Below are positions 30,175-39,094 of a DNA stretch of 64,000 nucleotides, piece by piece. The translations under genes were made by a program, and so were the position numbers. Below the pieces are notes generated by a model. The model saw only the letters and a program-made list of their open reading frames with translations, searched no databases and was not told the origin of the DNA. Source of the DNA: an uncultured Chloroflexia bacterium (GTDB lineage: Bacteria; Chloroflexota; Limnocylindria; QHBO01); NCBI GenBank assembly GCA_963814375.1, contig CAWFCQ010000008.1, positions 352,001-416,000 on the forward strand, read 5' to 3'. How positions within the stretch are numbered: position 1 is the stretch's first letter; every line of letters begins with the position of its first letter.

Positions 30175-31053
30175 GTGGAGTACCGCATCGCGCTCGCGCA
30201 GATGGCGCCGCGCCTGGGCGACCTCGACGCGAACCTCGAGCTGGCGTCCGACTGGGTGCGTCGTGCCTCCGCCGAGGGAGCGACGCTGACCCTGCTCCCC
30301 GAGCTCGCCCTCACCGGGTACCTGCTCCAGGACCTCGTGCCCGAGGTCGCGATCCGGGCCGACGACCCGCGGCTGCTGGCATTGGGCGACGGTGCTGAGG
30401 GCATGCTCGTCGCGGCCGGCTTCGTCGAGGAGACCGATGACCACCGCTACTGCAACAGCGTGGCACTGGTTCGCGACGGCGCGCTCATCGGCCTCCATCG
30501 CAAGGTCTATCTGCCCACCTACGGGCTCTTCGACGAGGGCCGCTTCACGCGTTCGGGCGACCGGGTTCGGACGCACGACGCCGGTGCGCCGATCGGGCGC
30601 ATCGGCCTGTCCGTGTGCGAGGACTTCTGGCACGCCAGCCTGCCGATGCTCCAGGCGCTCGACGGCGCCTCGCTGCTCGTGAACGTCGCTGCCGGGCCGT
30701 CACGCGCCCCCGGCTCCAGCGCGGGCCTCCAGGCGATCGAGGGCTGGCACAAGATGCAGGACACCTACGCGCTGCTCGGCACGGTTCCGCTCGCCTTCTG
30801 CAACCGCGTCGGCAACGAGGAGGGGCTCACCTTCTGGGGTGGCTCACGCATCCTGGCGGCCGATGGCTCCACCGTGGCGCAGGGGCCGCTGTGGGACGAG
30901 GCTCTCGTGGTCGGCACGCTGAACACGGACGACCTGCGCATGCAGCGCTACGGCCTGCCGATCCTGGCCGACGAGCGCCTCGAGCTCGTGCGCCGCGAGC
31001 TCGACCGGATCATCGCCGAGCGAGCGGGCATCGACGAGACGCCCGAGGAGTGA
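30175..31053 (+). CDS. Nitrilase-family carbon-nitrogen hydrolase, probable glutaminase subunit of NAD synthetase
   Basis: E-K-C triad in PELALTGY, HRKVYLPTYGLFDEGR and VCEDFW; GTGA overlap with nadE. Confidence 0.85.
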   Translation: MEYRIALAQMAPRLGDLDANLELASDWVRRASAEGATLTLLPELALTGYLLQDLVPEVAIRADDPRLLALGDGAEGMLVAAGFVEETDDHRYCNSVALVRDGALIGLHRKVYLPTYGLFDEGRFTRSGDRVRTHDAGAPIGRIGLSVCEDFWHASLPMLQALDGASLLVNVAAGPSRAPGSSAGLQAIEGWHKMQDTYALLGTVPLAFCNRVGNEEGLTFWGGSRILAADGSTVAQGPLWDEALVVGTLNTDDLRMQRYGLPILADERLELVRRELDRIIAERAGIDETPEE

Positions 31054-31910
31054 GCACCGACCAGGCTCCGCTGCCCGCGATCGAGCCGAAGCAGGCGATC
31101 GAGGTGATCGTGGGCTTCATCCGATCGCAGCTGGAGCAGGCGGGCTTCGAGCGGCTGGTGATCGGCCTCTCGGGCGGCGTCGACTCGGCCACCGTCGCGT
31201 TTCTTGCGGCGCGCGCGATCGGCGCCGACAAGCTGTTGGCGGTGCGCATGCCGTACCGGACCAGCTCCGGGGCATCCGAGACCGATGCGATGCGCGTCGT
31301 CGACGCTCTCGGCTGCCCCACCGAGCGGGTCGAAATCACGCCGATGGTCGAGCCGATGCTGGCGCTCATCGGCGACGACGATGATGAAGCCGCGACTCAA
31401 CGTGCGCCGTGGCAACGTCATGGCGCGGCAGCGGATGATCGTGCTCTACGACCGCTCGGCATCGTTCGATGCGCTCGTGGCCGGGACCAGCAACAAGACC
31501 GAGGCGCTCCTCGGCTACGGCACGTTGCACGGCGACATGGCGGCCGCGATCGCGCCGATCGGCGATCTCTACAAGACCCAGCTGCGGGCCGTGGCGGGCG
31601 AGCTGGGAGTTCCCGGCGAGATCCTCGACAAGCCGCCGTCGGCCGACCTGTGGCCGGGCCAGACCGATGAAGGCGAGCTCGGCCGCACCTACGACCTGCT
31701 CGACCGCACGCTCTTCGCGCTCGTCGACCGCCGCTGGAGCATCGACCGATGCGTCGCCGCCGGTCTCGATCGGTCGCTCGTCGAGTGGGTCGTAAGCGGG
31801 TGGCTCGCATGGAGTTCAAGCGCCAGCTGCCGCCGGTCGCGAAGCTCTCGTTACGCACGCCCGGCTTCGACCACCTCTATCCACGCCGCCGGCCGGGGTC
31901 GTCTCGGTAA
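31050..31910 (+). CDS. nadE: NAD+ synthetase (synthetase subunit), apparent frameshifts near 31393 and 31797
   Basis: GLSGGVDSA; GNVMARQRM, GTSNKTE, KPPSADLW; the tail resumes as MEFKRQLPP...SSR to TAA 31908-31910. Confidence 0.9.
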
Positions 31911-32009
31911 GCCCGCGGTAACGGGCCGATAAGCGTCGATTCCATAGCCTTCCACCACCAGCGGCCGTTCTCGCCCCCGGTGCGCTGCGCTGATGGAAGG
32001 AGCCATCAC

Positions 32010-33367: not shown

Positions 33368-34123
33368 ATGTCCGAGGAGTACCCCTACAACGGGCGATTG
33401 AGCCGATGGGATGAGATCGCGCCCGGCCTGGCCATCGTGGCCGTCGAGGCGTTGGAGGCGCCCTTCTCCTTCGAGCCCGGCCAGTACGCCACGCTCGGGC
33501 TGATGGGCTCCGAGGGCAAGCTCGTCCAGCGGCCGATGAGCATCTCGTCATCGGCCGACGATCTGTCGGAGTACGAGTTCTTCATCCGTCTCGTCGACGC
33601 GGGCGGCTTCACGCCACTGCTCTGGGAGCGAAAGACGGTCGGGGAGCCGATCAACATCAAGGGCGCGAAGGGCAAGTTCCTCCTCCAGGACGACGGCAGG
33701 CGCTGCCTCTTCGTCGCTTCCGGCACGGGGCTCGCGCCGTTCATCAGCATGATCGAGACGCTGCGCGGCCGCGGCCAGACGCGCGAGATCTTCCTCCTCC
33801 ACGGGGTCAGCTACGAGCACGACCTCGCCTGGCGACAGCAGCTGACCGCGCTCGCGCGCGACGAGGACTTCCCGCTCGAATACGTGGCCACGCTATCGCG
33901 GCCCGGCGACTCGCCGGGTTGGAGCGGGCCGACCGGACGGGTCGAGACGATCACTGCGGCGCAGATGGACGCCTACGGGCTGAACCCGGACAACACCACG
34001 CTCTACCTGTGCGGAAACCCGGACATGGTGAGCGCGATCGAGGAGATCGCAACGGAGCGCGGCTTCCCGCCGGAGCAGGTGCGCAAGGAGCTGTACTGGC
34101 CGAAGGGACGCGAGCACCGATGA
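33368..34123 (+). CDS. fpr: Ferredoxin--NADP reductase family FAD-binding oxidoreductase
   Basis: FEPGQY, RPMSISS, ASGTGLAPF, YLCGNPDM, terminal ELYW. Confidence 0.88.
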   Translation: MSEEYPYNGRLSRWDEIAPGLAIVAVEALEAPFSFEPGQYATLGLMGSEGKLVQRPMSISSSADDLSEYEFFIRLVDAGGFTPLLWERKTVGEPINIKGAKGKFLLQDDGRRCLFVASGTGLAPFISMIETLRGRGQTREIFLLHGVSYEHDLAWRQQLTALARDEDFPLEYVATLSRPGDSPGWSGPTGRVETITAAQMDAYGLNPDNTTLYLCGNPDMVSAIEEIATERGFPPEQVRKELYWPKGREHR

Positions 34124-35688
34124 CCGAGCGCGAAAGCTTCTACCTCACGACCGCGATCTTCTATCCCTCGCCACGGCCCGCCCTCCACTCGCTGTTCGAG
34201 GCGATCGGCGCCGACACGATCGCCCGCTACCAGCGGCTCGTCGGCCGCGATGTGCGCTTCCTGACCGGCTTCGACGAGCACTCGGCCAACGTCGAGCGGG
34301 ACGCACGCGAGGCCGGCATCGACCCGCACCAGCTGATCGACCCGTGGGCCACGACCTGGAAGGCAACGTTCGACCGGTTCGCGATCAGCGCCGATCGCTT
34401 CATCCGCACCACCGATCCGGACCACGCCGAGGCCGCCGCCGAGATGGTGCGCCGTGCGCAGGCCAGCGGCGACGTCTACCAGGGCGTCTACTCCGGCTGG
34501 TTCTGCAACGGCTGCAACGAGTTCAAGACTGACCAGCAGCTGGTCGACGGGCGCTGCCCCGACCATCCGACCCTCGAGCCCGTATGGCTGGAGGAGTCGA
34601 ACTACTTCTTTCGCCTCTCCGCCTACCAGGAACGCCTCGAGCGGCTCTACGCTGAGAACCCGTCCTTCTGCGAGCCCGAGCACTTCCGCAACGAGGTGCT
34701 CGGCTGGCTGCGCGAGGGGCTTCGCGACTTCAGCATCAGCCGGTCGGGCGCCACGTGGGGCATCCCGTTCCCCGGGGACGAGGCGCATCGGATCTACGTG
34801 TGGTTCGACGCCCTCACGAACTACCTCACCGGCGCCGGTTTCCCGAACGACCAGGCGGCGCTCGACCGATGGTGGCCGGCGGATCTCCACGTCATCGGCA
34901 AGAACATCACGCGCTTCCACTGCCTCTACTGGCCGGCCATGCTGATGAGCGCGGGCGTGCCGCTCCCGCGGCAGGTGTTCGCCCACGGCTTCATGCTCGA
35001 TCGGGGCGAGAAGATGAGCAAGACAGCCGGCAACGTACGCGATCCCGACGAGACCGCCGCCACCTTCGGCGTCGACGGCGTGCGGTACATGGTCCTGCGC
35101 GAGGTGCCGTTCGACCGCGATGCCGACGTTTCGACCGAGGCCTTCGTGCGCCGATACAACGCCGATCTGGCGAACGACCTCGGCAACCTCGTGAACCGCA
35201 CGGTCAGCATGAGCCGGCGCTATCTCGACGGCCGCCTGCCGGGCGTCGCCGATGCGACCCAGCCGGCCGATCTCGAGCTGCGCGCCACCGCGGAGCGCGT
35301 CGTCGAGGCCTATCACGCCGCGATGGAGCGTCACCACCTCGACAGGGCCCTGGCCTCGATGATGGAGCTCGCCCAGGCCGCGAACGGCTACGCCGAGGGC
35401 CAGGCGCCGTGGAGCCTCAGCAAGGCGGGAGAAGGCGAGCGGGTAGGACAGGTGCTGTCGGTCATGGCCGAGGCGTGCCGCATCATCGGCCATCTGTTGG
35501 CGCCGGTCGCGCCGGCCGGGTCACGCCGGATCCTCGAGCAGCTCGGCGCGCCGCCGTCGTACGACGAGCGCGGCGCAGGCGGACCCGGGCTGGCTCTGCT
35601 CGCCGCGTGGGGAAGCGGGCCGGACGAGTGGACGACGGGCGACGCCTCGCCGATCTTCCCGCGCGTCGAGCTCGAGGTGCCGACCTGA
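34120..35688 (+). CDS. metG: Methionine--tRNA ligase (short monomeric type) with a non-canonical HIGH motif
   Basis: FYLTTAIFYP, FIRTT, CNGC...CPDH knuckle, YVWFDALTNY, KMSKT, YNADLANDLGNL, APW; metG-tatD synteny. Confidence 0.93.
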   Translation: MTERESFYLTTAIFYPSPRPALHSLFEAIGADTIARYQRLVGRDVRFLTGFDEHSANVERDAREAGIDPHQLIDPWATTWKATFDRFAISADRFIRTTDPDHAEAAAEMVRRAQASGDVYQGVYSGWFCNGCNEFKTDQQLVDGRCPDHPTLEPVWLEESNYFFRLSAYQERLERLYAENPSFCEPEHFRNEVLGWLREGLRDFSISRSGATWGIPFPGDEAHRIYVWFDALTNYLTGAGFPNDQAALDRWWPADLHVIGKNITRFHCLYWPAMLMSAGVPLPRQVFAHGFMLDRGEKMSKTAGNVRDPDETAATFGVDGVRYMVLREVPFDRDADVSTEAFVRRYNADLANDLGNLVNRTVSMSRRYLDGRLPGVADATQPADLELRATAERVVEAYHAAMERHHLDRALASMMELAQAANGYAEGQAPWSLSKAGEGERVGQVLSVMAEACRIIGHLLAPVAPAGSRRILEQLGAPPSYDERGAGGPGLALLAAWGSGPDEWTTGDASPIFPRVELEVPT

Positions 35689-36491
35689 GCCGTCGACGCA
35701 CACCCGAGCGGCTGCCCGGGATCGTCGACGCGCACGCTCACCTCCAGCACGAGCGTTTCGACGCCGATCGGTACGACGTGATCGAGCGCGCGGTGACGGC
35801 CGGGATCGAGCGGATTCTCGTTCCCGGGTGGGATATCGCCTCGTCCGAGGCGGCCCTCGAGCTCGCCGCCGAGCATCCCGGGCTGGTCGATGCCGCTGTC
35901 GGCGTCCATCCCCACCATGCGTCTGGGATGGACGAGCCGGCCTGGGCGCGGCTCGAGGCGCTCGCCGCCGATGCTCGTGCCCGTGCCATCGGCGAGATCG
36001 GCCTCGACTTCTTCCGCAACCTCTCCCCGGCGGACGTCCAGCGCGAGGCCTTCGAGCGACAGCTCGGGATCGCGGCGACGCATCGGCTTCCGGTCGTGGT
36101 CCACGACCGCGATGCCCACGCGGAGGTGACGAGCACGCTGGCTGCATGGGCACCGCGCTCGGGCCGAGCGAAGCCAGGGATCCTGCATGCCTTCTCCGGA
36201 GACGAACCGATGGCGCGGCGCCTCTCCGGAGCGGGCTTCCTGATCAGCTTCGCGTTGCCGGTGGCATTCGGATCGGCGGTCGGTCCGCGCGCGGCAGCCA
36301 CCGCGGCCGACGCGGGCAGCTTCCTGGTCGAGACCGATGCGCCCTACCTCGGTCCCGATGCCGAACGCCGCAACGAGCCGACCACGGCCCTTCGCGTGGC
36401 CGCGGAGCTCGCACGGCTGCGATCGGTGACGCCTGAGGACATCGCCGATGGGGTCGGGCGCGCCTATCGCTCGGTGATCGACGCAGGCTGA
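35685..36491 (+). CDS. tatD: TatD family hydrolase (probable CTG start)
   Basis: DAHAH, GVHPH, IGEIGLDF, HDRDAH, LVETDAPYL. Confidence 0.9.
   Translation: MSRRRTPERLPGIVDAHAHLQHERFDADRYDVIERAVTAGIERILVPGWDIASSEAALELAAEHPGLVDAAVGVHPHHASGMDEPAWARLEALAADARARAIGEIGLDFFRNLSPADVQREAFERQLGIAATHRLPVVVHDRDAHAEVTSTLAAWAPRSGRAKPGILHAFSGDEPMARRLSGAGFLISFALPVAFGSAVGPRAAATAADAGSFLVETDAPYLGPDAERRNEPTTALRVAAELARLRSVTPEDIADGVGRAYRSVIDAG

Positions 36492-37393: not shown

Positions 37394-39094
<1,701 letters not shown>

Follow-up and report, generated by a model that had tools for sequence, protein, structure and literature searches.

The closest described counterpart of the enzyme reported here is the type 2 isoleucyl-tRNA synthetase (IleRS2) carrying the G/AXHH motif, a housekeeping enzyme whose class Ia HUP domain has positions 1 and 3 of the H-x-G-H signature exchanged, as in ALHH of Deinococcus radiodurans (PMC10485003; PMC13752280). 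In IleRS2, a shifted tip of helix α1 lets the histidine at motif position 3 (His3) occupy the position of that at position 1 (His1); the natural ALHH enzyme of D. radiodurans has normal catalytic efficiency, and the swap raises the Ki of mupirocin 200- to 800-fold (PMC10485003). The same exchange inactivates IleRS1 (PMC10485003) and archaeal IleRS-A (PMC13752280), so tolerance of the swap is not automatic. Published accounts describe the exchange as belonging to the IleRS2 scaffold and as a means of resisting mupirocin (PMC10485003; PMC13752280). With the canonical motif of Mycobacterium tuberculosis methionyl-tRNA synthetase (MetRS), His1 bonds to N7 of adenine, Gly3 sits against the base, and the contact with the α-phosphate is made by His4 (PMC6038951).

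The window analyzed here (the whole stretch of 64,000 nucleotides) encodes on its forward strand a type 1 MetRS (MetRS1) of 522 amino acids without the C-terminal dimerisation domain (metG; 34120-35688). Residues 21-24 read A-L-H-S (34180-34191; codons GCC CTC CAC TCG) in place of H-x-G-H, two residues after Arg19 (34174-34176), whose alignment column is counted below. The preliminary description had reported this motif, its gap-free alignment, and its ordinary codon usage, and each of these held: the alignment of ALHS with HVGH of the M. tuberculosis enzyme needed no gaps, nor did that with the motifs of the S. aureus (HIGH), S. pneumoniae (HIGS), A. aeolicus, and Brucella enzymes, and GC3 was 0.92 over the whole of metG and 0.925 over its first 40 codons. 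The readings given there for three further sites were likewise correct. DEHSAN (34273-34290) retains Asp52, the equivalent of M. tuberculosis Asp49, which contacts the amino group of Met (PMC6038951). GKNI (34897-34908) has Asn262 in place of the Asp that, in the M. tuberculosis enzyme, touches the 2'-OH of the ribose (PMC6038951). The second signature is KMSKT in the translation, with Lys298 at its first position (35011-35025).

Family assignment was examined with profiles and structures. The protein scored 450 bits against TIGR00398 (cut-off 336), passing the score for the MetRS family, and 563.7 against PRK12267, below the cut-off of 598, with positions 3-513 of the 648-position profile matched. 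Its single connective-peptide knuckle (C129, C132, C146, and H149; 34504-34566) and structure comparison placed it nearer to MetRS1 than to MetRS2 structures, and a MetRS2 of the class was 27% identical to it. The four knuckle residues are likely zinc ligands, a role that we assume from T. thermophilus MetRS. N347, N356, R360, and W431 were invariant among the sequences aligned, and we take them to have an anticodon role. The window protein departs from the canonical HxG(H) motif of MetRS1, and the earlier claim of a 1/3 swap of the G/AXHH type was borne out by Ala21 and His23; Ser24 stands where G/AXHH has His, and the scaffold is that of MetRS1 and not the HUP-2 scaffold of IleRS2. The protein is predicted with high confidence to be an active enzyme, which would charge tRNA-Met.

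The structure prediction proposed in the preliminary description gave a MetRS1 fold. The AlphaFold model, built on a 13-row alignment, had a pLDDT of 92 and a TM score of 0.92 to the Met-AMP complex 6ax8; this confirms the fold and not the geometry of the motif, and a 1.7 Å shift of α1 probably lies below what the model resolves. The window protein resembles canonical MetRS1 (6ax8/5xet, M. tuberculosis; 7wpl, S. aureus; 9shc, S. pneumoniae; 1a8h, T. thermophilus) in its fold, with a TM score of about 0.92, in its single knuckle, and in its Met pocket and anticodon domain, and differs in Ala/His for His1/Gly3 and Asn for the ribose-contacting Asp. It shares with IleRS2 the class Ia HUP domain, a likely housekeeping role, and the pairing of His at position 3 with a small residue at position 1, which in MetRS1 too was probably gained more than once; GLHH members of the class match the IleRS2 motif exactly. 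Unlike swapped IleRS2, the swapped enzyme is a MetRS1, has no known linked inhibitor, carries Ser at position 4 (Thr, His, Tyr, or Phe in relatives), and can have Pro or Val at position 1.

To separate unusual from ordinary features, we counted residues in 366 distinct near-full-length MetRS1 rows, a set enriched for the clade. His3 was present in 170 rows and His1 together with Gly3 in 194, while two rows had neither combination and none had both. In all 170 swapped rows, position 1 was occupied by G, A, P, or V. His occupied position 4 in 11 of them, and position 4 was other than His in 74 of the 194 canonical rows (Ser in 10); the solved S. pneumoniae MetRS (9shc) combines a YPS loop like that of the window protein with Ser at position 4 (HIGS). 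Exact KMSKS was found in 93 and DEHG in 104 of the 194 canonical rows, and Ser stood at the Gly position of DEHG in 32% of 171 canonical MetRS1. The preliminary description had grouped the other site changes with the swap as one remodelling, which these frequencies do not support: non-His residues at position 4, DEHS, and KMSKT are common variation in canonical MetRS1, so that only the 1/3 exchange and Asn262 stand out. The latter change remains noteworthy, with Asn in 60 of 60 xLHS rows, the subclade to which it is confined, and in none of the 194 canonical rows.

Two further positions covaried with the motif. Of the 170 swapped rows, 126 had Arg or Lys two residues before the motif, against 51 of the 194 canonical rows; Arg at the first position of KMSKS was present in 135 swapped and 14 canonical rows. 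The basic residue at -2 (Arg19 in the window) is a possible compensation for the swap. Both associations serve as leads only, since related sequences are not independent, which makes the counts overstate covariation, and since the window protein keeps Lys298, so that the Lys-to-Arg change is not obligatory. Eleven positions (Y15, E27, D52, W228, A231, L232, Y235, G260, I263, H267, and H289) were kept in essentially all swapped groups; according to the contact table of M. tuberculosis MetRS (PMC6038951), these are Met-pocket and ribose positions.

The motif is conserved among close relatives, which might have read HxGH had the window motif been an artefact: among genus loci with an N-terminus, 26 of 27 read ALHS and one VLHS, and one further locus lacked the N-terminus. 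A contig from another public run spanned 34030-34235 and differed only at 34051, outside the motif. A contig from an RNA library spanned 34167-34496 with one difference; contigs cannot show transcription, and it is therefore not evidence of expression. The dN/dS of metG against 24 genus relatives was 0.14-0.27, indicating purifying selection. Assembly error and pseudogenisation were ruled out by conservation in the genus and family, purifying selection, and the independent contig.

The source assembly (8 contigs, 2.52 Mb, 89% complete, 4.5% contamination) contained three tRNAs with a CAT anticodon. A search for a second, canonical metG, as the preliminary description had advised, recovered no second MetRS in this 89%-complete assembly by tblastn, phmmer, and PF09334 with MetRS1 and MetRS2 queries. 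Among 29 good relatives (completeness of 90% or more, contamination of 5% or less), 25 had one swapped MetRS1 only, one had a swapped MetRS1 and a MetRS2, and three had MetRS2 only, with the motif HLGH and no MetRS1 found. In these three genomes (G039, G047, and G055), the canonical MetRS2 gene stands head-to-head with tatD at the place where a swapped metG1 otherwise precedes tatD in the same direction, and it likely replaced the swapped metG1 in place. Such replacement suggests that MetRS2 and the swapped MetRS1 do the same job. The MetRS2 copy of G055 contains an internal duplicated stretch and is possibly mis-assembled.

The swap was widespread in the family and class. With a pattern leaving motif positions 1, 3, and 4 open, 118 of 151 family genomes matched (33 without a match; 0 matches with the reversed-pattern control), and all 118 read ALHS or PLHS by eye. 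All 120 database homologues among the matches listed read xLHS, and the named homologues belonged to Ca. Limnocylindria or Chloroflexota, which makes Limnocylindria the likely class of the source. Other families of the class carried GLHT (10 loci, with one GVHT) in f3, GLHT in f4, GLHH in seven genomes of f2, and GLHF in f5. A swap-specific pattern matched at least 120 loci in the genome collection; 112 of the matches listed were swapped MetRS, and the rest of those 120 were four short fragments with the same N-terminus and four loci whose best frame lacked the N-terminus. The titled records among the matches listed were Chloroflexota in 79 of 80 cases and 'bacterium' in one. The swap was present in genomes of 1.0-1.4 Mb and in records titled Ca. 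Limnocylindrus. Nine genomes marked as unpublished enter the counts of relatives and loci given here, and none of the conclusions hinges on them.

Outside the class, the MetRS1 of other Chloroflexota families read HxG in 31 of 32 cases and SAGS in one, a count that set aside three MetRS2 loci and three loci of the sister family f19. The phylum-wide pattern scan matched 7 of 353 genomes outside the class against 4 for the control; of the five matches whose locus was read, four were due to chance and one (G595) was real. The best 150 representatives at 50% identity comprised 3 GLHT, 141 HxG, and 6 sequences without the N-terminus. In JGI metagenomes, scans for swaps in other MetRS contexts, run without a positive control and therefore weak, gave no match in the TPIYY context and two in the MetRS2 context ALPYANG, neither in a MetRS frame. 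The sister family f19 was mixed: its 30 loci read ALHY (5), HLGF (22), HLGY (1), and QLGF (1), with one unreadable.

Three side observations concern individual loci. Genome G265 of family f3 carries an ALHS-type gene (C89:15000-17300) branching with or near family f1, for which transfer, binning error, or a deep branch are the options. The SAGS sequence is the MetRS1 of G391 (C9:500700-502900), which has no His at motif positions 1, 3, and 4 and reads KGSKS; this genome also has a MetRS2-like match. Seven loci of family f22 encode a canonical-HIGH MetRS1 whose KMSKS loop lacks both lysines (ELSQS, PMSQT).

To trace the history of the motif, mapping it on a tree as had been proposed, we applied IQ-TREE (LG+G4) to 46 chosen rows from which the motif columns were dropped. 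The tree united the MetRS1 of the class and of the sister family f19 at 99/99; an earlier FastTree of 142 rows had separated f19 from the class, though only weakly supported. Because f19 mixes ALHY and HLG[FY], the motif switched state at least twice, and two was the minimum number of state changes on this tree and on a quick mixture tree. A single origin uniting every swapped gene in a clade was recovered in 0 of 1000 bootstraps and rejected by the AU test (p 0.0047, obtained on the quick tree, which is itself sub-optimal). The canonical f19 genes were monophyletic in 186 of 1000 bootstraps, and the AU test does not reject that clade. Two gains of the swap are favoured, and one gain followed by one reversion is possible. 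The swap is at least as old as the class, and ALHS is a derived state within a GLHH/GLHY/GLHT series. The ATP site had been described as independently remodelled; this holds in that the event is separate from that of IleRS, a different synthetase family, and fails in that the change is not local but at least class-old.

We also asked whether the ALHY genes of f19 are mosaics with a Limnocylindria donor. Identity in 40-column windows favoured the canonical f19 genes nearly throughout, and the windows at the motif and the KMSKS region favoured neither source decisively. The five ALHY and 23 canonical f19 sequences were separated by 28 fixed differences. QLGF, which occurs in f19 and is one base away from HLGF, is a plausible intermediate between the states on the strength of a single sequence; the two His-less sequences, QLGF and SAGS, are represented by one sequence each and could be errors.

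We consider it probable that the window MetRS1 is an active housekeeping enzyme in which His23 takes on the first His's function, the change having been accommodated by compensation and entrenchment with no antibiotic needed. Our confidence is good that His23 relocated as in IleRS2, an analogy, and weaker, leaning only slightly in favour, that compensation and entrenchment rather than an antibiotic fixed the swap. In the proposed mechanism, His23 at motif position 3 would assume the ATP-contacting role of the lost first His. If the crystal structures of IleRS2 are a guide, the α1 helix tip would be displaced so that His3 fits beside the adenine, its ring nitrogen lying in the place of the His1 ring nitrogen. 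Position 1 would be filled by a small residue (G, A, P, or V), and Ser24 would replace His4, as it does in many ordinary MetRS1. The ancestor of the MetRS1 clade of Limnocylindria and the sister family may have turned permissive, and the motif may have changed via a His-less intermediate (xLG; compare QLGF and SAGS), possibly helped by the basic residue at -2 and the Lys-to-Arg change in KMSKS. Further changes would later have entrenched the swapped state.

The foremost alternative, which we regard as unlikely, is that the swap was selected as a block to an unknown natural MetRS1 inhibitor entering the HIGH-KMSKS cleft, as mupirocin does in IleRS2. This precedent is direct, and the repeated switching of the motif is in its favour. 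The IleRS of the same genomes also bears on it: the source genome encodes GVHH (C4:420675-420716, minus strand), and, among 101 class genomes, a motif-open pattern read by eye identified swapped IleRS in 98, of which 72 read GVHH and 26 read G[VI]H, their fourth residue lying outside the pattern. Together with the mupirocin effect in IleRS2, this fits shared selection by inhibitors. However, the swapped motif occurs in 86 of 163 IleRS2 (PMC10485003) and is thus common anyway, so that its co-occurrence in MetRS and IleRS says little. In the sister family, moreover, the IleRS motif was GIHH in 36 of 41 genomes, including genomes with a canonical MetRS; all 36 readable genomes had swapped IleRS, yet 23 of 29 MetRS were canonical, so the two swaps are uncoupled there. 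Families f2 and f5 have a loop one residue longer before the IleRS motif.

The inhibitor resistance that the preliminary description had considered possible found no support here. In 3 of the 29 good genomes, a MetRS2 takes the place of the MetRS1, and such substitution is a known resistance route against synthetic MetRS1 inhibitors; the accessible parts of the same review name only synthetic MetRS inhibitors (PMC7916415). The swap is fixed across the class, including the streamlined genomes of 1.0-1.4 Mb, and the neighbours of metG that were examined included no resistance or biosynthetic genes. The serine of DEHS could be counted for an inhibitor, as laboratory S. aureus resistant to REP8839 reportedly carries G54S/I57N, with Gly-to-Ser at the DEHG position, but this serine is common in canonical MetRS1. 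REP8839-type compounds sit in the Met and auxiliary pockets, reportedly working better at high ATP, and ATP co-binding has been shown for related compounds (PMC9071491); REP8839 would therefore be a poor probe of the HIGH change. The more specific proposal that the HIGH motif of one Chloroflexota MetRS1 clade flipped at least twice under an undiscovered natural MetRS antibiotic, with the ALHY and HLG[FY] genera of f19 as a natural pair for finding it, seems to us rather improbable.

We give still less credence to the idea that the swap was selected because it adjusts the kinetics of the enzyme, in ATP affinity, rate, or Met/Hcy handling, to cells that grow slowly and are limited in energy. The changes do cluster at ATP contacts (positions 19, 21, 23, 262, and 298), and exchanging the motif shifts KM(ATP) and kcat in IleRS2 (PMC10485003), but the Met pocket is unchanged and genera of one family carry canonical and swapped alleles. 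That a short gene conversion copied the motif out of the swapped ileS of the same genome is very improbable: swapped IleRS does occur in the same genomes and GLHH resembles G[VI]HH, but the sister-family ileS encodes GIHH while its swapped MetRS, ALHY, keeps the L and Y of its HLG[FY] relatives. That metG is inactive or mis-assembled, with the work done by a canonical MetRS that the assembly lacks, could be entertained given 89% completeness, 4.5% contamination, and the absence of both His1 and His4, but is barely credible against the swap in 118 of 118 readable family genomes, purifying selection, the independent contig, and 25 of the 29 good relatives having no second MetRS.

The preliminary description knew of no swapped motif in MetRS, and we found no published report of one in the literature searched, which covered few subscription papers; among the matches listed, the terms HXGH and GXHH occurred only in PMC10485003. 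A single-copy essential MetRS1 with a class-wide swap indicates that a second synthetase family can tolerate the exchange in a setting to which mupirocin has no relevance. It becomes testable whether the swap arose as an adaptation to antibiotics or is an alternative geometry, close to neutral, from which IleRS2 happened to profit, and the sister family, with close relatives bearing either motif, offers a tractable system for what makes a scaffold permissive. Checks based on HxG would mis-call swapped metG as inactive.

The motifs read for other class I enzymes of the source genome (LeuRS, ValRS, two CysRS-like proteins, TrpRS, TyrRS, ArgRS, and a LysRS-like protein) keep Gly at position 3. 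The two CysRS-like genes read HLGH (C8:160327-161691, minus strand), for which an MshC-like paralogue is our guess, and HIGN (C2:178675-180087, minus strand). Segments of about 26 kb and about 20 kb, containing two leuS and duplicate tRNA clusters, are present twice at 90-96% identity (C2:212491-240016 with C5:239515-266254, and the end of C4 with the end of C8), probably through contamination by a close relative. In the window, nadE (31010-31932) and groEL (37460-38957) each appear split over two frames, probably by sequencing frameshifts.

Upstream of metG lies a ferredoxin-NADP reductase-like gene (33368-34123, plus strand) whose stop overlaps the metG start (ATGA), and such a gene preceded xLHS metG in 47 of 48 loci with enough flank. 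Directly downstream, in the metG-tatD order noted earlier, lies tatD (35685-36491, plus strand), which followed swapped metG at each of the 56 loci whose flank was long enough (56 of 56). Its likely CTG start overlaps the TGA stop of metG as CTGA (35685-35688), both here and among 23 of the 24 genus relatives, the 24th having been mis-parsed, and appears to be a conserved non-standard start.
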